IMG/VR virus record: IMGVR_UViG_3300020170_000003
Location: 2,267-66,266 of that record
DNA: 64,000 bases
Direction: 5' to 3' (one strand)
DNA from: a virus
The notes beneath the pieces are model-generated. The model was given only the letters and a program-made list of their open reading frames with translations. It made no database searches and was not told where the DNA came from. Positions 4,283 through 62,530 of the stretch are shown piece after piece. The number at the start of each line of letters is the position of its first letter. The first letter of the stretch is position 1. The translations under genes and the position numbers were made by a program.

Positions 4283-4287
4283 AAGTC

Positions 4288-4322
4288 TTGCAGTAAGACT
4301 GTCTCTTAGTTAAAATGATAAC
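4288..4322 (+). promoter_or_regulatory. Internal promoter whose -35 lies inside a 17-bp dyad and whose -10 lies inside a GTTA-N6-TAAC site
   Basis: TTGCAG(4288)-17 nt-TAAAAT(4311); GTTAAAATGATAAC at 4309-4322. Confidence 0.55.
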
Positions 4323-4328
4323 TAAACC

Positions 4329-5234
4329 ATGAATACAGAAATTATCAGGGTATTTCCAGATAGGAATAAATGGACTCCAGACGATGAATGGGCGTTTGTA
4401 GGAGATTTACCGCTCGACTCAATGCGCCCCGGAACACCAGATACCCCAGTAATGATAAGCGTTACTTTTACATGGTGGAGACGTAGAGCAGAACAAATTG
4501 CTGAATCATGGCGAACTCATTATAGAAACGTAAAAGTAGGTGGCCCTGCTTACGATGATCCAGGAGCGGAATTTATACCCGGAATGTTCATTAAAAAGGG
4601 TTGCACTATTACCACTAGGGGATGTCCTAAAAAATGTGGATGGTGTAGCGTACCAAAACGTGAGGGCGCATTGAGGATACTTCCAATTCGTCCCGGATGG
4701 ATAGTGCAAGACAATAATCTTTTAGCAAGCTCTCTGCCGTCGCTCTTATACTCAGAAATAGACGCAAGAGAACATTTTGATTCCGTATTTAAGATGTTAC
4801 GGGAACAAGAAAGATCATGCTCATTCAATGGTGGCCTAGATAAACACTTTCTCAAAGAATGGCATGTCCAATATTTTGATTCAATTCCTGTAGCTGAATT
4901 ATGGTGGGCTGCTGATGTGCCAGATGATTTTAGATGGCTTGAAAGAGTCAGGGAATTATTCTCCCATTTTCCTAATCATAAAATGCGCTGCTACACGATG
5001 ATAGGCTACGAAGGTGAAACGTTGGCCGAAGCTGAAAAGCGCATAGAGCGCGTATTTGAAATGGGCTTTATGCCTTTTAGTCAGCTTTATCAGCCACCAT
5101 ACGCGGATGTTCCAATGAAAGTTTATGGGGCAGACTGGAAAGCGATAAACCGCAAATGGAGTAGACCTGCTATCTATAAAGCGAAAAAGGCAGAAACTAC
5201 AGAGAATAATCTGTTCTCAAATGCAGCAATCTGA
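4329..5234 (+). CDS. Radical SAM superfamily protein
   Basis: TTRGCPKKCGWCSVP = CxxxCxxC [4Fe-4S] motif; FNGGLD strand; phage radical-SAM family pattern. Confidence 0.75.
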   Translation: MNTEIIRVFPDRNKWTPDDEWAFVGDLPLDSMRPGTPDTPVMISVTFTWWRRRAEQIAESWRTHYRNVKVGGPAYDDPGAEFIPGMFIKKGCTITTRGCPKKCGWCSVPKREGALRILPIRPGWIVQDNNLLASSLPSLLYSEIDAREHFDSVFKMLREQERSCSFNGGLDKHFLKEWHVQYFDSIPVAELWWAADVPDDFRWLERVRELFSHFPNHKMRCYTMIGYEGETLAEAEKRIERVFEMGFMPFSQLYQPPYADVPMKVYGADWKAINRKWSRPAIYKAKKAETTENNLFSNAAI

Positions 5235-5892
5235 GCGCGTAAACGATTTCGAGGAATCCCTAAGGCTAGCCCTCAAAGGCCAAAGCCTAATTACATGGGT
5301 ATCTCTGCCTGTAATTATTCAGTCGTTTGATCCTGTAAAATGCACATGCACAGCGCAACCTGCTATTCAAGCTTTAGTGAGACAGAAAGACGGAACGCAG
5401 CAGTACGTAAACATGCCGCTACTAGTTGATGTTCCGGTATGCTTCCCGAACGCGGGGGATTTTGTCCTCACGTTTCCAGTAGCACAAGGCGACGAAGCTC
5501 TGATAGTTTTTGGCGACAGATGTATTGACAATTGGTGGAACTCAAGCGGAATCCAGCCCCAAGTTACAACACAAGGCGTAGGAGAATTACGCTTCCACGA
5601 TCTTAGCGACGGATTCGCAATCATCGGGCCTTTCAGTAAGCCGAATGCGCCAAGCGGAATTAGCACAAGCACAGTTCAATTGAGAACTAAAGACGGCGCA
5701 ACGTATCTGGAAATTGATTCATCGGGAAACTGCAATATCGTGGCGAACGTAAACATCTCAGGGAACCTCACGGTAAGCGGTATGACCACGGGAACGGGCG
5801 ATGGCCAATTTGCAGGAATCCACGTAGCCCACCATCGACATACTGGAGTGCAATCTGGCGGCGGTACGACAGGGGAACCAGTGGACGGATAA
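5221..5892 (+). CDS. Baseplate central spike (Gp138-like)
   Basis: OB-fold region (P.LVDVPV.FP...LTFPVAQGDEALIVF.DRCID.WW), HDLSDGFAIIG, C-terminal HxH iron-binding HRHTGVQSGGGTTGEP. Confidence 0.85.
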   Translation: MQQSERVNDFEESLRLALKGQSLITWVSLPVIIQSFDPVKCTCTAQPAIQALVRQKDGTQQYVNMPLLVDVPVCFPNAGDFVLTFPVAQGDEALIVFGDRCIDNWWNSSGIQPQVTTQGVGELRFHDLSDGFAIIGPFSKPNAPSGISTSTVQLRTKDGATYLEIDSSGNCNIVANVNISGNLTVSGMTTGTGDGQFAGIHVAHHRHTGVQSGGGTTGEPVDG

Positions 5893-6026
5893 AAAGTCTT
5901 GCAGTAAGACTCTTTGGTGACATACAATTCAAATCAATTCGCCATGAGTGAAAACAACAAGGGGACAACCCAAAGACAGACTCACAGCAAAACAAGGCTT
6001 GAGTCTGCTTTGTTTTATAATTCACT

Positions 6027-6416
6027 ATGCGCGTGAGAGCACTAACAGCCAACTTGGATTTTGCGTACGGGCAGGGTTCGTCTAATTATCTTGTGGATTC
6101 CGTGGAAGCTGTAGCACAAGAAGTTTTAACTACTCTTCTGGTATTTCAGGGAGAATGGTTTCTGGATACTACTGCTGGAGTGCCATGGTTTACGCAGGTG
6201 GCTGGAGTCGGAACAATTCCGCTGTACGATCAAGTAATTAAGCAGGCGATTGAAGGTGTTCAAGGTGTAACAGGAATCGTGAGTTATTCAAGCAGCCTGA
6301 ATCGCGCAACAAGAGCACTTACGGTATCGGCCACGATTGATACTCAATTTGGGACTACTCAGATATCTGCTACGCTGCCAACTGTGCCTATAGTTTTTCC
6401 TTCAATAAGTTTCTGA
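6027..6416 (+). CDS. Baseplate wedge / gp25-like sheath initiator
   Basis: MRVRAL...AVAQ.V.T.L..FQGEWFLDT.AGVPW motif; follows spike. Confidence 0.75.
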   Translation: MRVRALTANLDFAYGQGSSNYLVDSVEAVAQEVLTTLLVFQGEWFLDTTAGVPWFTQVAGVGTIPLYDQVIKQAIEGVQGVTGIVSYSSSLNRATRALTVSATIDTQFGTTQISATLPTVPIVFPSISF

Positions 6417-6441: not shown

Positions 6442-7629
6442 ATGAGCGGAGTTCTTACTACTTATGCCTGTACAGTAACTTCTACGGGAATAACTTCGCC
6501 ATCCTACAATGACATTCTGCAAAGCCGGATTGCTCAAATGCAGTCAATCTTTGGTTCCGATATTTCCCTGAATCCGGGAGACCAAGATTTTCAAATGCTT
6601 GCGATATGGGCCTTAGCGCAGTTCGATACAAACCAGATGGCAATAGCTACTTACAACAGCTTCATGCCAACATTCGCGCAGGGAATAAGCCTGAGTATTT
6701 TGGTCAAGATAAATGGGCTTATGCGGTTGAATTCCAGCGCGAGTACAGCGGTAGTAACGGTAATTGGAACAGTAGGAGCGCAGATAATAAATGGAGTTGC
6801 GCAAGATGTAAATGGATTTCTGTGGAATTTGCCCGTTCTGGTAGTGATTCCCTTGAGTGGAAGTATAAGTGTAACCGCAACCTGTCAAACGTCGGGATCA
6901 ATCGGCGCATCCGCGAACACGATCAATCAAATTTTTAATCCGCAACTAGGCTGGCAGTCAGTTAATAACGTAGCAGGAGCGATTATAGGGGCACCAGTGG
7001 AAACGGATGCCGCCCTACGTCAGAGACAGACTATTAGCGTTGCCTTGCCAGCCTTGACGCCATTACAGAGCATCTCAGCGGCTATTGCTCAAGTGTCTGG
7101 GGTATCGGAATCAATAGTTTATGAAAATCCGACCAACATAACCGATAGCAATGGAATACCGTCGCACTCAATTTCTGCCGTAGTAGCAGGCGGCGATGCA
7201 ATGGCAATAGCTACTGTAATCGAGAAAACGAAATCTCTTGGTACAGGAACCTATGGAACAACAAGCATAGTAGTGATTGATCCTGTAGGCTTGCCGATAA
7301 CAATTAACTACTTTGTTCTGGTTCAAGTTAATATTTTTGTATCGCTCACGATTAAAGCATTAACGGGCTACGTAAGTTCAACTGGATTGGCGATACAGAA
7401 CGCAATAGTAAGTTTCATCAACTCTCTCAGTATTGGGCAGGCAGTAAGAATAAATTGGGTGAATGCCGCTGCGCAGATGATAAGTAACCCAGCCCTAGGA
7501 GAGACATTCGAAGTAATAGCCCTGACGCAGGGATTTTCGGCTAGTCCAGTCGGCACAATAGATTTAGCTATCCCATTTAATCAACAAGCGGTATGCTTGA
7601 CTGTGAACGTTCTGCTAACCGTAACTTAG
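6442..7629 (+). CDS. Baseplate J / gp47 family protein
   Basis: DFQMLA...GISLSILVKING...ETDAALRQR...VSESIVYEN.T..TD.NG.PSHSI motifs. Confidence 0.85.
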   Translation: MSGVLTTYACTVTSTGITSPSYNDILQSRIAQMQSIFGSDISLNPGDQDFQMLAIWALAQFDTNQMAIATYNSFMPTFAQGISLSILVKINGLMRLNSSASTAVVTVIGTVGAQIINGVAQDVNGFLWNLPVLVVIPLSGSISVTATCQTSGSIGASANTINQIFNPQLGWQSVNNVAGAIIGAPVETDAALRQRQTISVALPALTPLQSISAAIAQVSGVSESIVYENPTNITDSNGIPSHSISAVVAGGDAMAIATVIEKTKSLGTGTYGTTSIVVIDPVGLPITINYFVLVQVNIFVSLTIKALTGYVSSTGLAIQNAIVSFINSLSIGQAVRINWVNAAAQMISNPALGETFEVIALTQGFSASPVGTIDLAIPFNQQAVCLTVNVLLTVT

Positions 7630-7662
7630 TCTCACCGTAAGACAAAAAGAGGGCAAAGCGAA

Positions 7663-8340: not shown

Positions 8341-8342
8341 AA

Positions 8343-10551: not shown

Positions 10552-10608
10552 CAATTACAAAAACATCAATGTTAGTATGACGGTGAGACTTTTGGAGAGT
10601 AGCTAGAG

Positions 10609-12425: not shown

Positions 12426-12565
12426 TCGCCCGCCACCCCAGCCGGGATGGAAAGAAGATGAAAAACCCAGCAAGCCTGAGTATCCAGAGAAACCAGAAGA
12501 CGAAAGGGAAACTCCAGAGCAAGAACAATAGTCTCACTGCAAGACTTTTAGGGGAAAAAGAAAAC

Positions 12566-13164: not shown

Positions 13165-13193
13165 TTGACACTGGTTAACAAAATAACTATAGT
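13165..13193 (+). promoter_or_regulatory. Early sigma70-like promoter with operator in spacer
   Basis: TTGACA-17-TATAGT; GTTAACAAAATAAC at 13174-13187. Confidence 0.8.
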
Positions 13194-13232
13194 GTGCGCT
13201 GTACGGTAATCAACCGTAAAAAGGGAGAGCAA

Positions 13233-13981
13233 ATGACGCTTATGCAATTATCGCCCTTCGCCATTGAAAGAATGAACGCGGCGATCAAACGGGGAGCACA
13301 CCCGATTTACGCAGAGATGTGGGCAGCATGGCGCACATTGCAGGATAAGATTACTGGGCATCCCCAATACCGATATCCTGCTCCGTACTTACTTCTTAAC
13401 CTCGCTCAATTCAATCAACACCAAATGGGAATCTACAATGATTTGATGTGGAAAAACCGCAGCGCCCCCATACCACCCGCTGCAACTCTTTAACTGCCGG
13501 GGATGAAAATGGAGAGAAAAGGGAGAAAATAGCATGTCAATACTCAGCTACGCTCAGAAACTCAAGTCACAGGTAACTAATTTCTTCTGGCCGGAAGAGA
13601 CGAAATTTGAGCCGCTTATACCTAAACACATTTACGCTTTAGCCTTCGACAAGGCACCCATGAAATGCGCTAGTGTCAGGGTGAAAAGATCGAAGGCCAT
13701 TCGCACAATTCGTCGCCACAAAAGACAACAGAGGTATGCGATTTAGTCTCACGGTAAGACTTTTCCAAAACGGAGAAACTATGTTTCTTGCAAAGGCGTG
13801 GAATAATTATCCTAACTCTGAATTCCTGGTATCTCTAGTTGGAACTGGAGTTAGGATAATCCCATTAAACCACAAAGCAATAGCCATCATGCTTGTTGTG
13901 GACGATGAAGGCGAACCAGTTGACATGAGTTTCGAGCATGCTGCCATTATTATGTATGACGAAACCAGAGCGTTGAATTAG
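13233..13981 (+). other. Three small early hypothetical CDS (13233..13493, 13534..13746, 13736..13981)
   Basis: Contiguous ORFs, RBS-like purine runs before the first two; no recognisable family. Confidence 0.45.
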
Positions 13982-13982
13982 A

Positions 13983-14011
13983 TTGAAATGGTTATCATAA
14001 TAATGTAAAAT
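13983..14011 (+). promoter_or_regulatory. Early sigma70-like promoter with operator in spacer
   Basis: TTGAAA-17-TAAAAT; GTTATCATAATAAT at 13991-14004. Confidence 0.7.
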
Positions 14012-14020
14012 AGGGGAACC

Positions 14021-15718
14021 ATGACGAAACCTGAAGACATGACGAAAGAAGAATTGCAACAAAAGATAGCCGATATTGGGCGCTTTTTGACGGGCCCTTA
14101 CGTATCGCAGCCGGGGTACCTAAAGGGATGGGGCGTCGAATTAGAAGTGTACTCCGCAGAACTTCTCCGCCGTCTAGCCGAAGGCGAGCGTGGCACGATT
14201 GAAGTGCCGCATGAGCGTCTCTGCGGGAAAGAAAACCATCCCGATACGCCACACGTTTGCGATGAGCCGCAAGCCTTGACTGAACGAAGCAGGGCCGCTG
14301 GGTCAGGCTCTCCGCAAGGGGATTTGCTAGCCGCGCTAAAGGGCTATGAGCAATGGGAAGTTGATCTACTTAATTCATCTGAGGCGTGGCACAACGGTGG
14401 TAGAGACTTACCTGAGATCACGCAAGAGCTATGGGACAAACTGCTGGCCTTGCAAGCTATACGTAACGCATCTATCGCTAACTACGAATCGGGCGGCTCA
14501 GGGGAGCAGGGGCCGCGTCCGAATGCGCTTGAGTGGCTGAATGACTTCTTGGGTGTGCAGCCGCATGAAACGGTAGGCGCATCTGTCCGCTTCGTTACGA
14601 CAGAAAACAATGGTGCGTTCCTGCTGGGCAAGGATGACAAACGCTGGCGGCTATCTGAAGTCTTGGAAGCATACGCCGCGCAATCCTCTCTGGGGCCGCG
14701 TCCGGTCTGCCCGAAGTGCTCCGGAAATGATTTAACGATTTGGGTGCGAGGCAGCGACAACGCGGTTATTGTTCAATGCCCCTGCCATAAAACATCTGAC
14801 GATGGGATATGCAATAGCATTTCCGACTTCGCGCAATTCTTTGCTCCCTCTCAGGTCGTGAGCGAACTGGAAAAAGCCGTTGCTAAAGCTGCACGCTTGA
14901 TTCCCAGCGAAGAAGAGCCTGAAGAAAATGCGCCGTGGATGGTCGAAGCCGAGCCGGAACCAATGGGGCCGTTTTCACTTGTCGAGGCAATCACGGCAAT
15001 GATGGAACTGTTCGACCGAGAATTCAGTAAGGCCGATAAACGCGCTGAAGACCCCGGCGTGCTGGTGGATGTGGACGCCGACCCAGAGAAATTGATTGGT
15101 GACGTGCTTGATGGAATGTATTACCCGGTCGAAAGCGACAGAAAGTGGTACGACGAGCACAATGCCGCCGTGTCGAAACTTCTTGTAATTTTGCGCCGCG
15201 CCATACCTCAGCCCGTGGTGGATGTGGAGCGAGAGAAACGGATTCGAGAGATAAGGGAGCGCGAGAGCAAGGCTACCACAGGCCCATGGTGCTGGGATAA
15301 TCGCGGCGAAAAGTGCAACGACATTCAGATAGGAGTAGCTCTCGATGCAAATGATACCGCTCTTGAGGGCAGCATAAATAATTTTGAAGTTGATGAAGTT
15401 GATTACTGCGAGAGCATTGCCGGAGAAGTTAAATCGCCACTCGACGCTGATTTTATTGCCCACGCCAGAGCCGACATCCCATTTCTACTCGAGCAACTGG
15501 CCGTACCACAGAAGGGGGCGGAACCGTGCCCAGTTTGCCATTCGCCCCACCCCTGTCAACACTCGGAGCCAACGGTTCACGCTCTGATTACGTCCGTTCT
15601 GGAGTCTCGCGGGGCCGCACCAGTAGCCACGCCGGAGCCAGGCAGGCCGAGCCGAACAAAGCTACTCATGAAATTTTGGTCGGCAATGCATCTCGCCGGG
15701 TTTGCCAAAAACGCATGA
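14021..15718 (+). CDS. Mosaic multi-module protein with Ead/Ea22-like C-terminal module
   Basis: ATTGPW...DADFIAHARADIPFLLEQL motif; CPKC Zn module; Pro/Gly linkers. Confidence 0.5.
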   Translation: MTKPEDMTKEELQQKIADIGRFLTGPYVSQPGYLKGWGVELEVYSAELLRRLAEGERGTIEVPHERLCGKENHPDTPHVCDEPQALTERSRAAGSGSPQGDLLAALKGYEQWEVDLLNSSEAWHNGGRDLPEITQELWDKLLALQAIRNASIANYESGGSGEQGPRPNALEWLNDFLGVQPHETVGASVRFVTTENNGAFLLGKDDKRWRLSEVLEAYAAQSSLGPRPVCPKCSGNDLTIWVRGSDNAVIVQCPCHKTSDDGICNSISDFAQFFAPSQVVSELEKAVAKAARLIPSEEEPEENAPWMVEAEPEPMGPFSLVEAITAMMELFDREFSKADKRAEDPGVLVDVDADPEKLIGDVLDGMYYPVESDRKWYDEHNAAVSKLLVILRRAIPQPVVDVEREKRIREIRERESKATTGPWCWDNRGEKCNDIQIGVALDANDTALEGSINNFEVDEVDYCESIAGEVKSPLDADFIAHARADIPFLLEQLAVPQKGAEPCPVCHSPHPCQHSEPTVHALITSVLESRGAAPVATPEPGRPSRTKLLMKFWSAMHLAGFAKNA

Positions 15719-15772
15719 GGCGAAAAGGATTCAGCGAGAGCTGAAAATTAGAAGAAGAAAAGAGAAGAAGAA

Positions 15773-18700
15773 ATGTTCACAGTGAAACTTATCAGAGGCA
15801 ACGTCACGAAATTGGTGGCGGCAACCACAATTGTTATCTATCCCGCTGGCAAGCCAGAAGAAGCTAATGAGTCTCCTGCACCTCCAGTCGTTATGACGAA
15901 CAAGATGCGCGAAATATCGGTGGAAACATCTAGCGGGCAGAAGCAGGCTTTTTACATTGGGGACGACGCCAGCAGAGAGGCCGCGGGGATTCCAGTTCAA
16001 GAGCTTTGGGATCACGCTTTCATCGAAAACGCCAATGGGGCAACCACGGAGCGTGTCTATGCATACTGAACCGACTCCAGACGAAAGAGATAGAGTCTTC
16101 TCCCATTTCAATATTTGCACTTGGGAGTGCTCTTCCTGTGGCGAGAAGTATCTTTCCAGCATTGCCCCTTCGTTCTGTCCAAAGTGCGGAGTAAGCCATG
16201 ATGCAGGGCTTGACGGGGCGATTAAAGACGTACAGCGAGCCGGACAAATCATTGCAGCTGCTAGAGACGGCAACGGGCCTCCCGTTAATCCGCCGTCGAT
16301 GCTCTGGAGTGCATTGTGTAGCATGTGCGATCACTTAGACACTCTTCAGCGAGCTATTGCCGCTGGAGAGTATTCAGAAGCAAGTTAACCGTTCCGCCCC
16401 CGCTGAGTGTGACAGCGGGGCATATTTGAAAAGAGGAGAGGAACAACCATGACTCCCAAGCCCCAGAGCGTTTGTAAGTGCGGACAGCGCAGTAATCAAC
16501 ACTATGAGTTAACAGGCTGGTGTTATGTATGCCCATGCGAGAAATTCGAACCCGTGGCCGAACCCGCAGAGCCGAGCGTATCGCCAGTTACTAAACGCAT
16601 GATGGTCAAACCATATGGTGGCGAAGTACATGAAGAATGTCCTGATTGTCGTGGTGTGTGTTCAGAATACAAGAGCGCAGAGCCTACAGCAGAGCTTTGC
16701 GATAAACCGCAAATACCTGGGCCTGCTGATATTCCATGTGTTTTAGATAAAGGCCATTACGGATTCTGCCAGCCGGACTATGAACATCGCAGGAAAGTCG
16801 CCGCCCCGCAGCCAGTAGCCGGGCCATATGCGAACTGGAAGCCGGGAGATGCCGTTCCATCTCCAGCGGGTAAATATGCGCCAGCGCAGCCAGTAGCCGG
16901 AGAGGGGCCGCAGCCAGAGGAAGGAATAGATTTCGCTTGCGGCTGTTTTATTCGCTATTGGGTGCAGGATGGAGTTATCCGCTCGGGCTTGGCGTGCTGC
17001 GCTACGCATGAAAAGCCTAATCAGACATTGGCCAACCTGCTCAAGCATCGCCAGATTGAATTTACCCACAAGGCTGGCCTTGTAGAGATTGGGAATTGCT
17101 CTTGTAAAACTCCGATCATGCGCAAATGGTCTTTTGGTCAATGGAGCAGCTGGATTCACAACGACCCGCTAAAAGCTAACTATCAAAAACATTCATGTAG
17201 CGAAAGAGGCGCGAGTCCACATTCATCTACCGTCCCAACAGCCAATCCAATTCTAGGGAGCACGCGCTATGCAGAATGAAATTAAAGCCGAGGGAACGCC
17301 GAAGCTGGAAGAGGCGGCTAGACAATGCGCCGTATTAGTCGTCACCAAACCGCCGCTATCGAATGACTTGATCGTAAAGTTGTACGAGCAAAATGTGGCG
17401 AACATGACCGCAAGATTCTCCGACATTCTCCGCCCCTTCTTCCCCCCAGCCAGCACGCCGCGACCGTGTGTGATCCGTGGATGTAGAAATCTAGCGATGA
17501 TGGAAGGTTTCGCATGTCCAAGCCATACCGAACTGGACGCGGCTTGGAACGAAATTCATTGCTGCGATGATGTGAGATTAGATCAAGGCTTGGCTGTAGC
17601 TATTGGCGATTTACAGAAGGCTCGTGCCATCGCGGAACAGACCAAGGCTGGATTTTTAGCGGCTGCGCTCAAGCGGCTGTACGAAGAAACTGCCGAGTAT
17701 ATTCGCATCAACAATCTTGGCGACGTTCATCACAATCAGGCAATGAAAGATGCGCGTGACATTCTGGCTACCTCAGCCAGCACAGGAGAGGCGAACGGGT
17801 GGGAGCGTGGAACTTAACGAAAAGGAGATCACCACAATGAGTGAACACCAAACTACAGAATGTGGGCAGTCCGAACGAGACAAGAGACTGCTCGAAGGGC
17901 TTGAAAATCCAACAATCATCTACTACGGCCCTCATCCATGTGACCTATGCGACGATGGCTTTATCGTTCGCGGATCAGTGGAGCAGGGATTCGGCGATAT
18001 TCGGTTTGATTATCCCAACAAAAATGATTCCGTAATTTACCCCAACCGTAACTGGAAATGGCACCAATGTACGTTATTATCCGCAAGCGAGGTTATAGGT
18101 GACTAATCGTAGAGTTGCCGTTTCTGTTACGGATGCTCATATCGAGAGTGGTATTCGCGGCCATGCCGCCCGAGGTGCCTTAGCGCTGGCCTTACGAGAT
18201 GCGGGGTTCCGTGCTCCATTGGTGTTTCCAGCGTCCATTGAAGCGACAGTAATCGTGTTGGACGGGCAGCAAGTTGATGTTTCCAAGCTACCCCGTAAGG
18301 TAATTGATTTTGACTGTGACTTCGAAGAAGGAAAGCCAGTTAAGCCCTTTACGTTCGTATTGCGTATTGCAGCGGTCAGGCAAACAGCAGTTCGGCTAAA
18401 AGTGCAGAAGATAAAGCTAATTAACACGCCGAAGGCCAGAGAGCGAGTGCGCGATTGGTTACTTAAGCAATGCGACACCGCCCGTAATACTAGAAATGAT
18501 TTGCTACAAAACTGGTATTTCGATTGATGGTGGTTGTTGGCCCTTATGGATGTTCCGCAAATACACGCACCTGATTTTTGGTTGCTTAGGAAGGGAAAAA
18601 TGAGAGGCTACATGGGAGTAAGAGGACAGTTTGACGCTGGAGATGAAGATCTAGATATACAGACTGAGGAATGTGGTCAATTCACGGGCAAATCGCTCGA

Positions 18701-19025
18701 CGGTGCAGAATCGCATTGCAGGAAACCCAAAGGCCATGGAGGAAGCTGTAATCCGTTGCATGGCATGACATTCCTGGCCCCCACCAGCGTATTCCCAAGC
18801 GGAGCCGCCAAAAGAGGAGAGCAAATGACGTGTCGTAAATGTGGTTCGGCTGACATCCATACCAGTTTCCACGAAGATGAGTATGCCTGCCGCAACATCC
18901 TGCACTCTCAATATCGCTTTAATGGCGAACATCTTCACAGGTACTGTCGAGGTTGCCAGTATCAATGGTTTACTTCATGCGAGGATGCGGCCCAAGCGGA
19001 GCCGAAGGGAGAAAACGCGAAGTGA
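15773..19025 (+). other. Cluster of early hypothetical CDS (15773..16069, 16059..16388, 16449..17279, 17269..17817, ~17837..18106, 18099..18527, 18534..19025)
   Basis: Overlapping start/stop junctions; several CxxC-type Zn modules. Confidence 0.45.
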
Positions 19026-19582: not shown

Positions 19583-19618
19583 AACTTTTGATATCGCAAA
19601 AAGGATGGGTCTAATCTA

Positions 19619-21947: not shown

Positions 21948-21989
21948 AGTCTTTCGGTAAGACTTCCGCCATATTGGGGCATCGCCTAG

Positions 21990-22096: not shown

Positions 22097-22125
22097 TTGA
22101 CAAGGTTATCATAATAATCTAAAGT
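22097..22125 (+). promoter_or_regulatory. Early sigma70-like promoter with operator in spacer
   Basis: TTGACA-17-TAAAGT; GTTATCATAATAAT at 22105-22118. Confidence 0.8.
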
Positions 22126-40961: not shown

Positions 40962-41021
40962 ACATGCTATGCAATCCCCTGCCATTACTGTAAAGTAGAA
41001 AAGTCTCACGGTAATACTTTA

Positions 41022-46251: not shown

Positions 46252-46269
46252 GTCTTACGGGAAGACAAT

Positions 46270-49368: not shown

Positions 49369-49408
49369 GTCTTACTGTAAGACTTTTACGACGAAAGGAA
49401 TTTGAGTA

Positions 49409-50159: not shown

Positions 50160-50654
50160 ATGAAACCACAAGTTAATATTAATGTAAATATCACGGTAGA
50201 TAACCTTGAGCAATTCGGGAAAGCGATTGAACTACTCAAGCGTAAGCAGGTATTGGCTGGAGTACCAGAAGCCAAGGCAAGACGTAAAGGCGATCCTATA
50301 AACAATGCGACGCTGGCTTACATTCACGATAAAGGTAGTCCTAGTCAGAACATTCCAGCCCGGCCTTTTATGGAACCGGGAATCCATGATGTATCGGTAC
50401 AGATAGAACAAAAGCTGTTAAGTGCGGGGCAGTCTGTGCTGGAAAATGATCCCGTAAAAGCAGAGCAGAAACTAGAAGCGGTTGGGCTTATAGCGCAGAA
50501 CGGAATCAGGAACAAAATCAATTCCAACATCCCGCCTCCGTTAAAACCAGCAACTCTCGCGGCAAGACGAAGAAGAGGTAGGACAGGGAACCGGAGCTTA
50601 GTAGATACGGCCCAGATGCGAAACTCAATTACCTACATAGTGAAAGATAAATAA
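50160..50654 (+). CDS. Neck / tail-completion protein (HK97 gp10-like)
   Basis: NATLAYIH..G....IPARPF..PG...PL...T...R...LVDT.QMRNSITY. Confidence 0.75.
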   Translation: MKPQVNINVNITVDNLEQFGKAIELLKRKQVLAGVPEAKARRKGDPINNATLAYIHDKGSPSQNIPARPFMEPGIHDVSVQIEQKLLSAGQSVLENDPVKAEQKLEAVGLIAQNGIRNKINSNIPPPLKPATLAARRRRGRTGNRSLVDTAQMRNSITYIVKDK

Positions 50655-50961: not shown

Positions 50962-51621
50962 ATGTGTCCTCTATTGAATCCCGGTTTGTCTGTATTGAGT
51001 AACCCTCTATTACTTGATACCTTCAATGTCATACGCAGGACTGAAACTGTGAATACTTCAGGTGAATCAGTTCTATCTCTCTCGGCATCGACTGGAATTT
51101 ACGGAGTAGTTAAACCTATAGGCGATAGGTTAGACCGTAAAGCAGATGACGATACAGACCAAAAAGACCTGAGAATATTTACCAAGTTTGCCTTGAGAGG
51201 ATCGGCAAGAGATGGAGCACCTACAAACTGGAAACCCGATTTAATATTCTGGCATGGCAATAATTTCATTGTAATAAACGTGCGCGATTGGGGAGCGTAT
51301 GGAATTGGCTATGTCGTAGCTGAATGTAATGCTATTGATGTAATATCGGCACCGCCTCAGGTAAATTCAGGACTAGGTAATTATGGAGTGTTAAATCCAT
51401 TTATCCCGCCGCCATCGCCCAAGGGAAGGCTACAAGCATATGCAGCCACGATAGTATCCAGTAATCAAGCGGCAATGCCAGTAGATGTAGATGCGGCAAA
51501 TATGATCTTGTTTAAGAATGGAGTTCTACAAATTTCGCCAGATCAATTCTCTGTAGCATCGCAGGTTATAACTATGGTTACGCCATTTGAAGCAGGGGAT
51601 GTGCTGGTGTTTTTTGCATGA
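50962..51621 (+). CDS. Head-closure protein with extra C-terminal domain
   Basis: N-half F.V.RR.E.V...G...PD.I.W.G..F.V..V.DW; C-half LFKNGVLQ...F.V....IT...GD.L fibre-associated module. Confidence 0.7.
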   Translation: MCPLLNPGLSVLSNPLLLDTFNVIRRTETVNTSGESVLSLSASTGIYGVVKPIGDRLDRKADDDTDQKDLRIFTKFALRGSARDGAPTNWKPDLIFWHGNNFIVINVRDWGAYGIGYVVAECNAIDVISAPPQVNSGLGNYGVLNPFIPPPSPKGRLQAYAATIVSSNQAAMPVDVDAANMILFKNGVLQISPDQFSVASQVITMVTPFEAGDVLVFFA

Positions 51622-54600
51622 AAATAATCCCAAAAAGTCTCACGGTAATACTTTTCTGCCTGTCATGCTTCGGACAGAACCTTCCCAACATATCCACGCA
51701 AACTAAAGGACAGTTACCAACCTCGCGTCTGAGTGGTCAAGGGGTAGCGGGATTATGTTTGCAAACGGATGGGTTAGGTGGAATGTCATTACTACCTTGT
51801 CCTGGCGCTTCTTCGGGAACGGTAACGCTATTCAGCGCAGGCAGTCTCTCGCAGTTATTCACTACTTCGGTAAGTAATCCGGCAACTACGCCCACGCTTA
51901 ACTTCGCCCTAGCTAGTTTCACAGCCCATACGTTCTATGGAAACAACACGTCAGGAACGGCTATTCCTGGAGCACAAAGCATAGGCTTAAGCGATCTTCC
52001 GGGATCAGGAAGCGTTACCGTCAATACGGCAGGGCCGTTAGGTGGTGGTGGTTCGCTAGCTTTGGGCGCAAGCCTAAATTTGACATGCGCAAGTTGTATA
52101 ACCAGTATTCCGCAACTAGCTATAACAAAAACTTTAGTAGCATCGAATTGGATCAACTCTTATGATTCAACTACAGGGCTATTCACTGCTACAAGGCCAG
52201 CCTATACAGACCTGATAGGACTTCCACAGCTTGCAGTTACTAAGACTGCAATAGCTTCTAACTGGCTAAGAAGCTTTGATTCTACGACTGGATTATTTAC
52301 AGCAACGCAACCTGCTACTTCTGATTTAAGTGACTTCCCTTCTCAAGCAGGCAATTCAGGTAAATTCCTAAGCACTAATGGAACGGTATTAAGCTTTGCG
52401 GCTGGTGGAACTGGTACAGTAACGTCATTTAGTTCTGGCAATCTATCGCCTCTATTTACTACATCGGTTGCAACGGCTACGACTACTCCATCGCAATCAT
52501 TCTCTTTGTCCACGGCTTCAGCCCATACATTCTTTGGCAATAATACGGCTTCAACCACTACACCTGCCTATTCAGTAATTGGAAACGGGGACTTGCCGGG
52601 AACTGGAGCGGTCACGCTGAATACTACGGCACCCATAACAGGTGGCGGCTCGGTAGCTCTTGGCAATGCGCTTACGTTTGCTTGTGCATCCTGTTTAACC
52701 AGCGTTACTGCCCATAATCTTCTAAGTGCAACGCATGGCGATACTACAACGCACGCAGTCTTACGGGGAGACTTAATTGCCGGAATAGGCGTAGTCCCGA
52801 CATGGACGGCGGTGGCCAAAGGTGGAACCAATACCTATCCAAAATGGAATGCAAGCGGAGATGTTATTTCTTCGACTCTTGCAGCATCCGGTATAGGTTC
52901 GCCAACATCATGTACGAATCAGGCTGTTACAGCGTTTACGTTATCAGCTGATGCCGCACCCACTTCTACCTGTACAACAATCACCAGCACATTTACTTCA
53001 GGAACTTTCTCGCCAAACGCCCATAATATTCTTTCGGTTTCGCATGGTGATACTACAGCAGCATCAGCAGTAAGAGGCGATGGATTTTTTGCCATAGGTG
53101 CATCCTCTACATGGCAGAGACTAGCTCATCCTGTTGCTACTGGAGGTTATTTCAAGTGGAACGGTACCGATGTAGTTGCATCAACGGGCGCTGCATCGGG
53201 AACTGGATCATGCGCATCGCACAGTTTTGAAACTGCTGATAATTCGGATGCTGCCCCAACCTGTACTCAGCCATCAGCTTCGGATTTAAGTGATGGAACA
53301 ACGGGAACGGGCGCAGTCGTAAGAGCTATATCTCCGGCTTTAACCGGAACTCCTACCAGTCCTACGCAATCAACTGGAGACAATACAACTGCGATAGCTA
53401 CGGATCAATTTGTAACTACAGCAATTAACAACGCTATCGCTGGAGTCAATCCGGCAGTTGCCGTACAAGCGGCATCGGCAGCGGTATTGCCAAATTCTCC
53501 AACTTACCTGAATGGAGCTAGTGGCATAGGTGCTACATTGACGGCAGGAGTAACAAATACTGCATTGGTAGTTGATGGATATACGCCAGTATTACTAGAT
53601 CGTATTCTAGTTAAGAATCAAGCGTCTTCCTTTCAGAATGGCGTGTACTCTGTTTCTCAGGTATCTGGCATCGGACTAGCGTGGATATTAACTCGTGCTT
53701 TAGATTACGATCAACCGTCCGACATGAATAATACGGGAGCAATCCCAGTAGCTAATGGGATAGTTAATTTAGATACATCATGGGTACAGACTTCACAAGT
53801 CACTACGGTTGGAACCGATGCGGTTACTTTTACTCAATTTAGTTTGAATCCAACTACACTAGTTGTAAATACTAGAAACATAAATACTACGAGTCCTATC
53901 ACTGGCGGGGGTAACTTAACCGCCGATAGAACAATTGCATGTGCAACATGCGTGACATCTTCTTCTCCCGGACCCGGAATAGCTCACTTTTCCGGATCGA
54001 CTCAAGCGGTTACCAGTTCTCCAATAACGTCTACTGACACTACAGGGACGTTTCCGGCCACGGCCCACAACTTACTATCGGCAACTCATGGCGACAGCAC
54101 CACGGGCACTGTAGCGCGAGGGGATGTCATTACAGGGCAAGGTGTAAGCGCGGCATGGGCGCGATTGGCTAAAGGTGCTGCGAGTCAATGTCTTCAGATG
54201 GATGGTACGGCAACGGATGTTACTTGGGGATCATGTGCTACTGGAGGGACTGGGGCATCCACTGCCGATACTTTTATTACCGTGGCTCATGATGCAGATT
54301 TAACCGCCGAGAGAATCCTGTCCTGTACCTCTGGTGATCTTACGTGTACCGATGGTGGGGCGAATAATGCTTTCACTCTGGATACAGGCGCGAATATTCC
54401 CAAGACCACGACATCTAATACGTACTCCACTGGCACATCGCAAAATATGGATACGATCACCGCGAAGTATTGGGGTAGTGCTCCTATATTCGATGCCACT
54501 AAGTACACTGGAACGGACATGTGCGATAAGATTGCAGCCGTTTATTCCGATGCTGTTTATATCGCAACCGCCGTATCAATCATTGATGCCCGTGGATTTA

Positions 54601-57098
54601 CTGGAAATCAGAATTGCGCCACGACGAATCCATTTGGCACAACCCATTCAACCAAGTGGATATTCAATGCAGGTTTACATGTTAATTTGACTAGATTCGC
54701 GGCTACACTTGGCCCAGCAACCTCTAGCCTGATTGCACCACCATCAGCCCCAACATTGGCCACGTCTACTACTACTGGCTCACTGGGAGCGGCTATCGGT
54801 GTTGGCGTTAAGGTAGAGTATGGAAACTTCGCTGGCCCTACGACGCCATCTTCTGAAGCCACAATTACTACAGGCGCAGGTACGACTAATATCGTCACCG
54901 TAACGTCTCCAGCCGTGGCATTTGGTGCAACGTGTTATGACGTTTTTTCTGCTACTCCAGTCGGGTCAGGATGGAAGAAGAATAATACTACTGGGTGTAT
55001 TCCGCTAGGCACGAATTATGTCATTAAGAACATCGGAGCGGGCGCAATTCCAGATACAACTAATCTTGCGGCAAACGATCAGTATGAAGTGGACTTCGGT
55101 AATTCCACATGGTCAGCCGGTAATAGCTCCGGCGCAATTATTGCGGGTATTTCCAATACCTACATACATGACTTAAAGTTTGTAAACAATGGCACGGCTA
55201 ATAATGGAAATGCTCTTGTCTATGTAAATAGTAATCTAACTAACGTCATTCTAGATCGTATCGACGTATCAGGCGCATTACATGGAGTTGCTTCATTTAC
55301 GAGCGGTAATATCCAAATAAGTAATATCCGCTGTTCTAACCCCACGGTAAGCGGGAGTTGCGTATTTGTCCTAACTGGAGACCATGTTAAGGTTTCAAAC
55401 GTATCAATGTATTCTGGCGTGTGGCCCACTGGCGGCAATCTACAAGGTGTAGTTAATCTTAGCGGTTGTATCGATTGTAGCGTGGATGGTGTAACGGCAA
55501 ACAATCTTGACATTTCCAATCTGGTTAATGGCGCAGCCATAATCGTGCAGGGCAGCAGCTTGCGCACTAATATTAATGACGTGAGTTGTGACGGACTTAT
55601 AAATTCTGACTGTGTTCTTATTACTGCCATGTCGCTACAAACGAACATTACGAATGTGAACTGTGCCAATACGAAAGTAGGCACTGGGGCTGGCATCGGG
55701 GCCAATGCTAACAACGGTGATTGCCTGGACTTTTTTAGTGCGGGTCGCGTGAATGCTACCAGCATAAACTGCCAAAGTATGGGACTAGTCGGAGGTCAAC
55801 AATTCCCCTGTTATGAGGTATTTAACGTAAGCGAAGTAGCCCTTAATAACTTAAACGCATATGACTCATCTGGCATCGGCCTGCGATTATTTGGCACTAC
55901 GGGGGCCACGATCACGGGCGGGCATTTTAATCGCAATAAGGGCTCTGGCATTCAGGTTGAAGATACGTCTGCTGTAGTTACTTGTAATAACACTACCACG
56001 GTCACTTATGTCAGCGGCCAACCATTTGGCCCTTGGGCACCAGGAACCACGGTTCAAATAGGCGCTGGCCCTACTGCATTTCAATTGGCTTCCGTCCCTA
56101 CATCAAGCAACACAATCACGCTTACCGCAGCCTGTAACCTCGGTGCATCTCAGGCGTTCAGCGTATACTCACAAGATACGCATATTGTCGGAGTACAAGC
56201 AGACGATAACGGACAAGGATTAGGTGGAGCTAATACACAGAGTGGTATTAGTGTACTTGGTCATTCTCAGGTGGATGTAGTTGGCGGTAGCATGAACGAC
56301 AACCGCGCCACTGCTAGCAAGACCCAGCAATGGGGAATCAGCGCAACCCCAGCGGGTGGGCAGACGGCAAGGATGCGCGTGATAGGAGCAGATTTTACAA
56401 ATAATCTAGGTGCAACATGCTCCGGCACAGAATATGGTGCGAATGTTACTGGGAACCATGGGGCCTGCGACGGCAATAAACTTAGTGCATTCTTGTTTGA
56501 TGATAACGTGGGGCCGAAGTGGACAATCGGGGCAGCCTCAACAGTAGATGCTTCGCTAAATATTCCAGCTGGTACTACTCCTACAACTCCAGTAGCAGGT
56601 GATTTTTGGAACGATGCTACCTCAGTAACCTACCGTGATCCTACATCTGGTATCAATCAATATATCCCGAAGAAAATATATCTCACAGGGAATTATACGA
56701 ACTCAACCACTAGCTTAACGAATGTGACCAGTGGTAATACGCTAGCCTTCGCGGTTGCGGCAAACAAAGATTACGCAATCACATGCGAACTATTTTACCA
56801 AACTGCATCAACGGGTGGTTTGCAAATAGGATTTACTGGCCCTGCGTCTCCTACGGCGGTAAATTACTCTGTGATGGTTGGCACTACTGCGACAACAATA
56901 AATAACGGCGAAGCAACGGCATTCACCACAAAGATTCCCACTGTGGGTGTAGCCGCTACGGCAACGACTAACTTCCCGGCACATGTGGCCTTAATGCTTA
57001 GAAACGGAGCTAATGCGGGAACGGTGACACTTCAGGCAGCAAGCGTGGCAGCTGTCCAGTTAACTATCAATAACACATCATTCTGCACGGTACAGTGA
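51618..57098 (+). CDS. Giant (1826 aa) signal-peptide-bearing fibre/adhesin with right-handed beta-helix (depolymerase-like) region
   Basis: MKIIPKSLTVILFCLSCFG|Q; internal duplications; LVVDG...DRILVKNQ...QNGVY...W.LTRA.D.D virion module; Asn/Gly/Val beta-helix coils in the C-terminal part. Confidence 0.7.
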   Translation: MKIIPKSLTVILFCLSCFGQNLPNISTQTKGQLPTSRLSGQGVAGLCLQTDGLGGMSLLPCPGASSGTVTLFSAGSLSQLFTTSVSNPATTPTLNFALASFTAHTFYGNNTSGTAIPGAQSIGLSDLPGSGSVTVNTAGPLGGGGSLALGASLNLTCASCITSIPQLAITKTLVASNWINSYDSTTGLFTATRPAYTDLIGLPQLAVTKTAIASNWLRSFDSTTGLFTATQPATSDLSDFPSQAGNSGKFLSTNGTVLSFAAGGTGTVTSFSSGNLSPLFTTSVATATTTPSQSFSLSTASAHTFFGNNTASTTTPAYSVIGNGDLPGTGAVTLNTTAPITGGGSVALGNALTFACASCLTSVTAHNLLSATHGDTTTHAVLRGDLIAGIGVVPTWTAVAKGGTNTYPKWNASGDVISSTLAASGIGSPTSCTNQAVTAFTLSADAAPTSTCTTITSTFTSGTFSPNAHNILSVSHGDTTAASAVRGDGFFAIGASSTWQRLAHPVATGGYFKWNGTDVVASTGAASGTGSCASHSFETADNSDAAPTCTQPSASDLSDGTTGTGAVVRAISPALTGTPTSPTQSTGDNTTAIATDQFVTTAINNAIAGVNPAVAVQAASAAVLPNSPTYLNGASGIGATLTAGVTNTALVVDGYTPVLLDRILVKNQASSFQNGVYSVSQVSGIGLAWILTRALDYDQPSDMNNTGAIPVANGIVNLDTSWVQTSQVTTVGTDAVTFTQFSLNPTTLVVNTRNINTTSPITGGGNLTADRTIACATCVTSSSPGPGIAHFSGSTQAVTSSPITSTDTTGTFPATAHNLLSATHGDSTTGTVARGDVITGQGVSAAWARLAKGAASQCLQMDGTATDVTWGSCATGGTGASTADTFITVAHDADLTAERILSCTSGDLTCTDGGANNAFTLDTGANIPKTTTSNTYSTGTSQNMDTITAKYWGSAPIFDATKYTGTDMCDKIAAVYSDAVYIATAVSIIDARGFTGNQNCATTNPFGTTHSTKWIFNAGLHVNLTRFAATLGPATSSLIAPPSAPTLATSTTTGSLGAAIGVGVKVEYGNFAGPTTPSSEATITTGAGTTNIVTVTSPAVAFGATCYDVFSATPVGSGWKKNNTTGCIPLGTNYVIKNIGAGAIPDTTNLAANDQYEVDFGNSTWSAGNSSGAIIAGISNTYIHDLKFVNNGTANNGNALVYVNSNLTNVILDRIDVSGALHGVASFTSGNIQISNIRCSNPTVSGSCVFVLTGDHVKVSNVSMYSGVWPTGGNLQGVVNLSGCIDCSVDGVTANNLDISNLVNGAAIIVQGSSLRTNINDVSCDGLINSDCVLITAMSLQTNITNVNCANTKVGTGAGIGANANNGDCLDFFSAGRVNATSINCQSMGLVGGQQFPCYEVFNVSEVALNNLNAYDSSGIGLRLFGTTGATITGGHFNRNKGSGIQVEDTSAVVTCNNTTTVTYVSGQPFGPWAPGTTVQIGAGPTAFQLASVPTSSNTITLTAACNLGASQAFSVYSQDTHIVGVQADDNGQGLGGANTQSGISVLGHSQVDVVGGSMNDNRATASKTQQWGISATPAGGQTARMRVIGADFTNNLGATCSGTEYGANVTGNHGACDGNKLSAFLFDDNVGPKWTIGAASTVDASLNIPAGTTPTTPVAGDFWNDATSVTYRDPTSGINQYIPKKIYLTGNYTNSTTSLTNVTSGNTLAFAVAANKDYAITCELFYQTASTGGLQIGFTGPASPTAVNYSVMVGTTATTINNGEATAFTTKIPTVGVAATATTNFPAHVALMLRNGANAGTVTLQAASVAAVQLTINNTSFCTVQ

Positions 57099-57157
57099 TA
57101 GTTAGAATTTAAATGTATAGTAATAAAAGTTCTAAAGTCTTGCGGTAAGATAAATCT

Positions 57158-57829: not shown

Positions 57830-57861
57830 AAGTCTTGCGGTGAGACTAGGAGATTGAAAGT

Positions 57862-59993: not shown

Positions 59994-60026
59994 AAGTCTT
60001 ACTGTAAGACTGCGAGGGACGAACAA

Positions 60027-61679: not shown

Positions 61680-61685
61680 GGTAAG

Positions 61686-62084
61686 ATGAGCGAAGAACTA
61701 GAACAACTGAAGGTATTATCCGCACAGCAGCCATCATTGCAAATGCTTCAGGGTGCGCTTGAATCCATAAGCGATCCTGTAATTATCGTGGATGTGTCTT
61801 TCATTTTGACCTACGTTAACGATCAAGCGGCATTTGTATTTGGCTATCGCCAGCATGATTTAATTGGACAGCACATCAACATCCTGATTCCAGATGCGTT
61901 AAAAGAAGTGCATGTCCAACACTTAGCGGAATTCCGTAACCATCCCCATGCGAGGGCCATGAAGGGTGGGACGGAATTGACGGCAAGAAGGAAAGATGGG
62001 TCAGACGTAAAATGCCGAGTTCAAATTACCCCGTACTCGACTGACTTTGATAGCTATGTTTGCGCACAGATTAGGGTTTTGTGA
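61686..62084 (+). CDS. Stand-alone PAS domain protein
   Basis: LESISDPVIIVD...YVND.A..VFGY...DLIGQ.INILIP...H...G.ELTARRKDGS is a canonical PAS S-box pattern. Confidence 0.85.
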   Translation: MSEELEQLKVLSAQQPSLQMLQGALESISDPVIIVDVSFILTYVNDQAAFVFGYRQHDLIGQHINILIPDALKEVHVQHLAEFRNHPHARAMKGGTELTARRKDGSDVKCRVQITPYSTDFDSYVCAQIRVL

Positions 62085-62085
62085 A

Positions 62086-62313
62086 ATGGCATCTCAAAAA
62101 GACTTTCAGGAAAGTGTGATTGCCAATTTCACCAAACTGGAGCAATCCGTCTTGGCAGTTAACTTAAAGATCGATACGCTCAATAATCAGGACATTACCA
62201 ACCTGAAGCTAGCTATGGTAAGGCTGGAGACGCAGGTTAAAATCTATGCGGCGCTAGCTGGATTCATTGGTATGGCAATCGGCGGGGCATTAGTAAAGTT
62301 TGTTGTGCATTAA
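62086..62313 (+). CDS. XhlA/holin-like protein (coiled coil plus C-terminal TM)
   Basis: LKLAMVRLETQVK then YAALAGFIGMAIGGALV. Confidence 0.5.
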   Translation: MASQKDFQESVIANFTKLEQSVLAVNLKIDTLNNQDITNLKLAMVRLETQVKIYAALAGFIGMAIGGALVKFVVH

Positions 62314-62314
62314 A

Positions 62315-62530
62315 ATGAGCTATAAGAAATTAACAGCCATGCTTTCCGGTGCAGCCATGAGTTCCCTAGGGTTGCTTAGTCTAGCTGGATATTGCTTTCA
62401 TAATGTCGGAATGTATACATGGGGAGGAACTGGCAGACCGGGTATGGGATTAAATACTGCTCTCGGTTTCTTCTTAGGTGGGCTGGCAATAACCCTGTTG
62501 TCTCTTGAAAAAGTCTTACCGCAAGACTGA
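62315..62530 (+). CDS. Two-TM protein resembling the membrane input segment of sensor kinases
   Basis: LGLLSLAGY...MGLNTALGFFLGGLAITLL matches the G.L.L.GW...M..NTA..F.L.G.AL pattern. Confidence 0.5.
   Translation: MSYKKLTAMLSGAAMSSLGLLSLAGYCFHNVGMYTWGGTGRPGMGLNTALGFFLGGLAITLLSLEKVLPQD

Follow-up and report, generated by a model that had tools for sequence, protein, structure and literature searches.

Short DNA sites that recur along a genome are known from several phages and plasmids. In mycobacteriophages L5 and Bxb1 they are the stoperators, asymmetric 13-mers to which the monomeric immunity repressor of a temperate, integrating phage binds; the CIRs (conserved inverted repeats) of Streptomyces phage phiC31 are 17-bp inverted repeats at many intergenic positions, bound by the repressor of a temperate phage. 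ParB-parS, KorB-OB (plasmid RK2) and N15 SopB rely on palindromes of 13-16 bp, with 1-12 sites recognised by a dimer that carries a ParB-type helix-turn-helix (HTH); KorB and N15 SopB have several dispersed sites and influence transcription. Here we describe a dispersed array of a 17-bp dyad, AGTCTYRC-N-GYRAGACT, in an uncultivated virus genome. The analysed window is a stretch of 64,000 nucleotides, positions 2267-66266 of the 66,588-bp IMG/VR record IMGVR_UViG_3300020170_000003 (completeness rating 100%), and coordinates below are those of the window. The two ends of the record have about 135 bases in common, which makes the assembly effectively circular, and the source phage is a soil myovirus of 66.6 kb.

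The nearest described array is that of the Cluster O mycobacteriophages, Corndog and its relatives, whose ~70-kb genomes carry more than 30 copies of the 17-bp dyad TGTTCGG-N3-CCGAACA, of unknown function (PMC4351075). These dyads are spread genome-wide, mostly between genes with about a third inside them, and are sites without meaningful orientation; the phages have no integrase, no lysogens were obtained, and the authors predicted a dimeric binder (PMC4351075). An earlier note on the present DNA, made by a model from the letters alone, had named only the L5/Bxb1 stoperators as precedent; the Cluster O dyads are much closer (PMC4351075). The same source describes the stoperators as about 30 dispersed sites in early and late regions, often in short intergenic gaps and biased in orientation relative to transcription, and presents them as a proposed block to elongating RNA polymerase (PMC4351075). 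Cluster K mycobacteriophages carry a further junction motif, the start-associated sequences (SAS), which are asymmetric, take in the ribosome-binding site and are phased to start codons (PMC3203893; PMC4351075).

Within the window the consensus is matched 32 times at no more than two mismatches, 15 times exactly, whereas 100 dinucleotide-preserving shuffles gave 0.13 matches on average and never more than 2. A further copy, at genome position 2005, falls shortly before the window and brings the whole-genome total to 33. The earlier note had put the number at about 31 and far above chance; both statements hold, and every coordinate it named was recovered in our pattern scan. Twelve positions of the dyad are near-invariant, positions 6, 7, 11 and 12 are Y, R, Y and R, and position 9 is free. 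Scanning IMG/VR with the pattern, in line with the earlier note's suggestion to search related phages, returned several fragments and two further complete genomes, G001 (67,068 bp, 34 dyads) and G002 (64,904 bp, 33 dyads), which are collinear with this genome (G000) and share ~73% nucleotide identity with it over the aligning half. Many dyads stand at orthologous junctions across the three genomes, among them those after the capsid gene, after 7629, after 10551 and inside a gene of 1826 aa. Orthologous dyads could be paired in 38 cases. Within these pairs the 12 fixed positions are 95% identical (somewhat inflated, because a pattern match was required of both members), the degenerate ones 67% and the 15-nt flanks 51%. 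The dyads are real and conserved under selection.

The sites of the three genomes were pooled into a set of 100 dyads, and their placement was compared with gene and open reading frame (ORF) calls, which were heuristic. In this genome 24 of the 33 dyad centres fall outside the cores of called genes, where 19% were expected (p=3e-11), in agreement with the proposal that about two thirds of the copies sit at gene junctions; taken genome by genome, the figure is 22-25 of 33-34 centres (~20% expected; p ~1e-9 to 1e-11). A third of the pooled dyads (33/100) start no more than 2 nt from the end of an open frame of at least 60 codons, compared with 1.3% of random positions, and at seven more sites the dyad's own TAA (positions 11-13) is the stop codon. 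The next gene often starts 1-25 nt past the dyad. Copies occur about every 2 kb through early and late regions, which bears out the genome-wide spread claimed before, and their spacing is more even than random (coefficient of variation 0.48-0.70), with a single long gap at 13745-20792. The dyad is also directional: A stands at position 1 in 98/100 sites, whereas the matching T at position 17 is kept in only 69/100; A-rich sequence flanks the left side but not the right; and in these unidirectional genomes the C-bearing half lies upstream in 39 sites (C..A) and downstream in 15 (T..G), the upstream half being the better conserved. Stop codons that overlap the dyad, and the A-rich leader of the gene that follows, may account for part of this asymmetry. 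The array is stop-phased and polar, and the dyad symmetry that had been claimed stands as a near-palindrome with independent halves, imperfect at the outermost positions.

Across the dyad, positions 6 and 12 combine as C-A in 39 sites, T-A in 33, T-G in 15 and C-G in 4, and positions 7 and 11 as A-T in 55, A-C in 18, G-T in 15 and G-C in 2. Each half-site independently reads AGTCT[T>C][A>G]C and sites with both halves variant are avoided, the pattern expected of a dimer that reads two half-sites on duplex DNA. Since C-A mismatches so outnumber C-G pairs, the dyad functions as duplex DNA, not as a stem in RNA; the earlier claims that the arms do not covary as RNA would and that the site suits a dimer on duplex DNA agree with these pair counts and with folding. 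As an mRNA hairpin, a weak terminator, processing site or translational element between cistrons, the dyad would have to prefer mismatching C-A and A-C over compensated pairs. The hairpin of the mRNA strand averages -3.6 kcal/mol, can form all seven pairs in only 17/100 sites and folds slightly less well than that of the non-coding strand, and no T-run was found 3' of the dyad in the site alignments, so that the stable G+C-rich stem and U-tract of an intrinsic terminator are missing. A terminator scan found terminator-like sites no commoner than in shuffled sequence, none of them coinciding with a dyad. In the distant relatives described below, which carry 14-bp dyads, the sites are nearly always of the mismatching type. 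Pair counts, folding energies and the missing T-run led us to reject an RNA stem, terminator or processing hairpin, and such a reading is very unlikely even though the placement between a stop and the next start is typical of terminators and processing hairpins, the genome has no ordinary terminators, and several genes start 1-5 nt past a dyad with no clear Shine-Dalgarno (SD) sequence.

The best candidate for a protein that binds the dyads is the 346-aa product of gene 28705-29745 (+), one of two binders that the earlier note had suggested. Its early sigma-70-type promoter (28611-28645, +; TTGACA ... GATAAC) and its start codon are separated by a dyad with one mismatch at 28657-28673, and this arrangement is present in all three genomes, the dyad being a perfect palindrome in G001 and G002. 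A profile hidden Markov model search of 1.84 billion representatives found 163 relatives of the protein, 43 of them at E <1e-10. We examined the contigs of seven of the closer relatives, which are 32-38% identical to the 28705 protein (tblastn). All seven have a TTGACA...TGATAACT promoter, a dyad and the gene in the same order. The dyad of these distant relatives is a different 14-mer of the type GTCYAAYRTTRGAC, with the leader copies GTCCAACGTTGGAC in L165, GTCCAACGTTAGAC in L166, GTCCAATATTGGAC in L167 and GTCTAATATTAGAC in L170, and further variants in L168, L169 and L172. The 14-mer in turn forms arrays of 7-15 copies per ~20 kb: L166 has 14 (21 kb), L170 has 11 (21 kb), L172 has 7 (18 kb) and L165 has 3 (4 kb). 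Shuffles give an expectation of ~0.05, and many copies lie at gene junctions. It has the outer GTC...GAC and the AGTCT-type arm in common with the 17-mer, and the putative recognition-helix segment of the protein, placed by alignment to the ParB HTH, differs between the 17-bp and 14-bp groups. In L166 and L172 nearly every dyad combines a C-half with a T-half (GTCC...AGAC).

Among cultured phages, a homologue of the 28705 protein was found only in Tunturiibacter phages Tunturi_1 and Tunturi_2 (tblastn, 50,697 phage records); in Tunturi_1 it is gp51, at 27% identity, and a 40-kb piece of that genome holds 11 GTCCAAnATTGGAC-like sites. Phage ZHS has neither a homologue nor dyads. On the leader dyad kept in three genomes and the joint occurrence of protein family and array in a large number of further soil phages, the 28705 product is most probably the binder. 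Near the homologues we also observed that in L166, L170, L172 and L173 the gene directly follows a DnaB-like helicase gene, often near an N6/N4 DNA methyltransferase gene, and that in Tunturi_1 such a methyltransferase gene lies directly downstream. Upstream of one distant homologue (L174:680-842) there is no dyad; the region holds four alternating direct repeats, GAGAGAACC and GAGCGAGCCA.

An AlphaFold2 model of the 28705 protein, built from a 78-row alignment (mean predicted local distance difference test, pLDDT, of 87.7), has a long K/E-rich N-terminal helix (residues 37-92) and a helical core (122-327). The best Foldseek matches in the PDB were the ParB DNA-binding domain on parS (6s6h), Spo0J (1vz0), Noc and P1 ParB, none of them significant, and structural alignment with representatives ranked Spo0J 1vz0 highest (Z 7.4, 106 residues aligned), followed by 6s6h (Z 6.4), below confident thresholds. 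Neighbours of the model in the AlphaFold DB include DUF222, DUF3102 and a protein named 'ParB/Spo0J HTH domain'. According to the model, the protein is probably a ParB-type HTH without the ParB N-terminal CTPase domain. Prediction of two copies of residues 100-346 gave a symmetric interface with a score of 0.57 (best control 0.00), a mark reached, when the tool was calibrated, by 20/30 proteins solved as pairs and by 1/23 solved as single chains. At least 70% of contacts are common to the three runs, and the partner pLDDT is 73 or higher. These predictions support dimerisation of the 28705 protein. The ESM Atlas feature search was uninformative.

The second binder that had been suggested is an XRE-family HTH protein of 91 aa (35574-35849, +; Pfam HTH_31). 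Were this repressor to bind the dyads and silence the genome of a lysogen, the array would be a symmetric version of the L5/Bxb1 stoperators. The protein is the sole clear HTH regulator found (Pfam HTH_31, with weak RstR/DicA-like matches), its HTH region does not vary among the three genomes, and a conserved dyad stands just upstream of its promoter. That dyad, at 35514-35530 (one mismatch, an ATACT arm, kept in all three genomes), precedes the -35 hexamer by 7 nt and is badly placed for autorepression. The spacer of the XRE promoter contains a different inverted repeat, TAGTTTG-N5-CAAACTA, which makes a more natural XRE operator than the dyad; an AT-hook-like arm of the protein, PGRPR, could read the dyad's A-rich flank. 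Within the promoter and gene region 35538-35849 the gene is apparently leaderless, with its ATG ~7 nt past the -10 hexamer, and leaderless start, spacer repeat and PGRPR arm are all kept in G001 and G002. In the portions examined, the array-bearing contigs of distant relatives contain no XRE homologue; this absence and the different promoter repeat disfavour the XRE protein as dyad binder.

The lifestyle of the phage bears on the same question. Searches of the three complete genomes for a tyrosine integrase (PF00589), a serine recombinase (PF00239) and a ParA-type ATPase (PF13614) gave no match, and the ParB N-terminal domain (PF02195) was not found in G000 or G002; a protein with that domain is encoded in G001 (G001:C1:37735-37893). 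Tunturi_1 and Tunturi_2, which bear homologues of the 28705 protein, are described as lytic, and integrase or recombinase genes are annotated only in Tunturi 3-5 (PMC11924767). The lack of an integrase, a serine recombinase and ParA makes L5-type silencing of a prophage unlikely, and equally a partition driven by ParA. The phage is apparently lytic. Silencing of the whole genome by the XRE repressor is accordingly an improbable reading. Two functions that the earlier note had entertained, stoperator-type silencing and a classical parS partition array, are thus disfavoured, the latter also by the absence of a ParB N-terminal domain from the candidate binder.

A host protein might also use the dyads, or they might be mobile or recombination-linker palindromes that spread between junctions. 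Many blocks of homology between the genomes begin or end exactly at a dyad, and several orthologous dyads have homology on only one side. Dyads are nevertheless not enriched at synteny breakpoints relative to collinear junctions (p=0.23-1.0, with crude breakpoint calling), for which reason recombination linkers at mosaic boundaries were rejected. A scan of bacterial genomes found single sites, which make up nearly all of at least 120 stretches, and no array-bearing bacterial genome among the matches listed; since almost all of these are single and scattered, a REP-like host element or the target of a host regulator was likewise set aside. Clusters of the palindrome AGTCTCAC-N-GTGAGACT on three unrelated bacterial contigs were rejected as relatives, having no protein in common with the phage. 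Such clusters were noticed on contigs of bacterial metagenome-assembled genomes (L117:1523-1638, L039:2680-2887, L113, L062): L117 has five copies at 22-bp spacing inside an HTH/Rep-like ORF of 445 aa and looks iteron-like, L039 has four copies beside an XRE gene, and L113 has several. Comparison of ORFs and a six-frame comparison found no match between these loci and phage proteins. Dyad sequence and a phage-encoded protein family change in step, and dyad positions are stable across species, so that we give a host or mobile origin hardly any weight.

Taken together, we incline, with slightly more belief than doubt, to the view that the dyads are double-stranded DNA sites for a phage-encoded homodimer, most probably the 28705 product, and act as gene-boundary marks. 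In outline, an early and probably autoregulated 28705 dimer, with a ParB/Spo0J-like HTH core and a lysine-rich N-terminal helix, would occupy the ~33 dyads in early and late regions, flush with upstream stops and just before the next ribosome-binding sites. Bound dimers would serve as roadblocks or insulators in lieu of the missing intrinsic terminators, parting embedded early units from late genes, and would keep early transcription out of late genes until a later event relieves them. Such a roadblock would be most effective where the ribosome leaves the mRNA. Co-directional genes, embedded early promoters, the lack of ordinary terminators and sites at which ribosomes leave together favour roadblocks or insulators.

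The relation of dyads to promoters fits into this picture as follows. The distance from dyad to sigma-70-like promoters is variable. In several places the order is promoter, small gene or ORFs, dyad: 13165 to 13745 with two genes, 22097 to 22330 with one, and 40029 to 40424 with small ORFs. The dyads often occupy the place expected of a terminator. Those at 25144 and 35514 are directly upstream of promoters, and those at 4284 and 5895 lie over -35-like hexamers. A role as a fixed part of promoters was rejected, since no flank is conserved beyond the A-rich left edge and promoter distances vary. The early promoters themselves form a family of near-identical, strong sigma-70-type sequences at 13165, 13983, 22097, 28611, 34245 and 40029 (+) and at 3152-3125 (-), with the consensus AAATAACTCTTGACA, ~2 nt, GGTTATCAwAATAAy, then TAtAgT. 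Each member has a GTTAT-N4-ATAAC palindrome in its spacer, so that the genome has a second operator system apart from the 17-bp dyad.

Several points weigh against boundary marks made by the 28705 dimer. The protein has no match in Pfam, PHROGs, NCBIfam or PDB sequences, its Foldseek matches have E >=0.26, and Z 7.4 is within the chance range for helical proteins. The contigs used for co-occurrence were picked for carrying the homologue, and ZHS is a single negative control. In Tunturi_1 no dyad lies just upstream of the homologue gene, and three more distant homologues, on short contigs of higher GC, have no GTC...GAC dyad; on the contigs compared, the association of protein and array is one of the closer sub-family only. 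Polarity in L166 and L172, relatives with genes on both strands, is statistically modest, with the C-half upstream relative to local transcription at 17 sites and opposite at 6 (p=0.035; Fisher by strand, p=0.10). Very short intergenic spacers alone could bring dyads flush with stop codons. Finally, late genes could be expressed only if roadblocks inside late operons were overcome, and the analysis identified no antiterminator.

Bridging, organisation or self-marking of DNA through the lysine-rich helix would be about as plausible as a roadblock, and both could coexist. In a purely architectural version, dimers placed about every 2 kb would bridge or condense replicating DNA, or mark it as self in packaging, replication or protection, with no direct effect on transcription. 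The predicted ParB-HTH-like fold, the long lysine-rich N-terminal helix, the position of the binder gene, which stays beside DnaB in the replication module, and the more than randomly regular spacing all suit such a role, as does the absence of dyads from the 7-kb, high-GC, lineage-specific segment 13745-20792. It leaves unexplained the tight phasing to stop codons, the polarity relative to transcription, the dyad in the binder's own leader and those that abut promoters; a CTPase domain for ParB-type spreading or clamping is also missing, ParB_N being absent from G000 and G002. We regard architecture by itself as possible and rather unlikely. The dyad-free segment has a G+C content of 0.52-0.535 against ~0.45 and no counterpart in G001 or G002, and looks like a recently acquired tail-fibre or accessory block.

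The individual sites are placed along the genome as follows. At the left end, exact dyads lie 1 nt past the stop of 3257-4282 (4284-4300, which contains the -35-like hexamer TTGCAG) and 2 nt past the stop of 5221-5892 (5895-5911, over a -35-like hexamer). The copy at 7628-7644 (one mismatch) overlaps the TAG stop of 6442-7629, with an ATG at 7663, 18 nt on, and 10574-10590 (two mismatches) occupies the gap between the stop at 10551 and the ATG at 10609; both are orthologous in G001 and G002. The exact dyad 12530-12546 is probably intergenic and is followed by an SD-like sequence and ATG 12566, whereas a second, 13745-13761, overlaps the stop of 13534-13746 and closes the two-gene unit of early promoter 13165. 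Beyond the long gap, 20792-20808 (two mismatches) begins 1 nt past the stop of 20587-20790, 21948-21964 (one mismatch) comes immediately past the stop of 21240-21947, and the exact dyad 22330-22346 is 9 nt past the stop of the small gene 22165-22320, downstream of early promoter 22097.

In the replication region, two exact dyads supply the stop codon with their own TAA: 25144-25160, for 24944-25156, is 1 nt from the -35 TTGACA of the promoter of an O-like initiator, and 26866-26882, for 26396-26878, is followed after 2 nt by ATG 26885. A dyad with one mismatch at 27085-27101 is 1 nt ahead of the ATG of the DnaB-like helicase gene (27103, +) and is orthologous in G001 and G002, as is the position of the copy in the binder leader. 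Exact copies follow within small ORFs past the binder gene (29857-29873, orthologous in G001), within a conserved 71-aa ORF, 32231-32446 (32333-32349, in all three genomes), and 15 nt ahead of the stop of 35896-36402 (36371-36387, orthologous in G002). The dyad at 36975-36991 (one mismatch) is within the HNH endonuclease gene, and that at 37939-37955 (two mismatches) provides with its own TAA the stop of 37553-37951. About 400 nt past early promoter 40029, beyond small ORFs, lies 40424-40440 (one mismatch).

Among the structural genes, 41002-41018 (one mismatch) is 3 nt ahead of the portal ATG at 41022 (+), and 43420-43436 (one mismatch) fits between the stop at 43418, 1 nt before it, and ATG 43440, 3 nt after it; both also occur in fragment L005. 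Within gene 44639-45391 a dyad with one mismatch (44878-44894) is kept in all three genomes. The copy at 46251-46267 (two mismatches) overlaps the stop of 45790-46251, 2 nt ahead of the GTG start of the head protease gene (46270, +), and the exact dyad 49368-49384 overlaps the stop of the major capsid gene (48307, +), 24 nt ahead of ATG 49409; this post-capsid site is found in all three genomes. The weakest dyad, 50553-50569 (two mismatches), is within 50160-50654. An ORF of 1826 aa between head and tail genes (51618-57098), which has no PHROG match, holds two dyads that are kept in both sister genomes: 51636-51652 (one mismatch), 14 nt past the stop at 51621 and at the extreme start of the ORF, is orthologous in G001 and G002, and 52757-52773 (one mismatch), within the gene, is identical in all three genomes. 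After it come 57136-57152 (two mismatches), 37 nt past the stop at 57098 and 5 nt ahead of ATG 57158, and the exact dyads 57831-57847, 1 nt past the stop at 57829 and 14 nt ahead of the tail sheath ATG (57862, +), 59995-60011, 1 nt past the stop at 59993 and 14 nt ahead of ATG 60026, and 62512-62528, at the 3' end of 62300-62530.

Homology searches also placed the large terminase (38695, +) and the lambda-O-like initiator gene (25449-26399, +), and family searches RusA (31750, +) and the HNH endonuclease gene (36416, +). The + strand holds essentially all genes. The only convincing leftward gene is an ORF of 218 aa, 2441-3097 (-), which has no family match and a perfect TTGACA-16-TATAAT promoter at 3152-3125 (-), within an otherwise one-directional tail region. 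Origin iterons of the lambda-O type were considered for the dyads and rejected: there is no dyad cluster at the initiator gene, and the sole repeat inside it is a different 19-mer, CATTCGGTTGRAA..., present at 25833-25851 and 25878-25896, 45 nt apart. This pair may represent origin iterons. Comparison by DNA with published phages found no relative, close or distant; in capsid protein, Edwardsiella phage ZHS comes closest (50% identity). Querying IMG/VR with TerL, XRE and capsid returned members of the same genus only.

If boundary marks are indeed set by the 28705 dimer, they would be a new way of punctuating the long one-directional operons of lytic phages and a source of orthogonal protein/operator pairs. 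More tentatively, and as a proposal that we think conceivable though not probable, a widespread and so far unrecognised system may exist in which a CTPase-less, ParB-HTH-like dimer and ~30 polar, stop-phased dyads replace intrinsic terminators, protein and site having evolved together across lineages, between a 17-bp and a 14-bp dyad. A protein-DNA roadblock network, and not RNA signals, would then set unit boundaries and the timing from early to late expression in lytic soil phages. The array is linked here to a conserved, uncharacterised protein family with a co-changing site, while the binder and purpose of the Cluster O dyads are unknown. A cultured member, Tunturi_1 with its gp51 homologue, opens the protein-DNA system to test.

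How, then, does the array compare with the systems described at the outset? It resembles that of Cluster O in having more than 30 dyads of ~17 bp per genome, mostly intergenic and conserved among relatives, in phages with no integrase; it differs in sequence, host phylum and virion type, and in being stop-phased and polar, with a candidate binder family pointed to by co-occurrence. With L5 and Bxb1 it shares dispersal over both the early and the late region and frequent placement in short intergenic gaps. Unlike the stoperators, it consists of a 17-bp dyad with equivalent half-sites and partial polarity, in phages with no lysogeny genes, and its likely binder is not the XRE repressor. The phiC31 CIRs are likewise 17-bp inverted repeats between genes genome-wide, unlike the present dyads in sequence, host and temperate lifestyle. 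ParB, KorB and SopB offer the same type of palindromic site and possibly the same fold, the 28705 model being closest to ParB DNA-binding domains; they are set apart by the lack here of a CTPase domain, of ParA and of sequence similarity, by the ~33 sites and by an apparently lytic phage. Like SAS, the dyad is a short conserved junction motif with fixed phasing; unlike SAS, it is symmetric and phased to the preceding stop codon. A dispersed dyad array as such is therefore already known, and what is new is the stop phasing, the polarity and a candidate binder family whose site changes with lineage.

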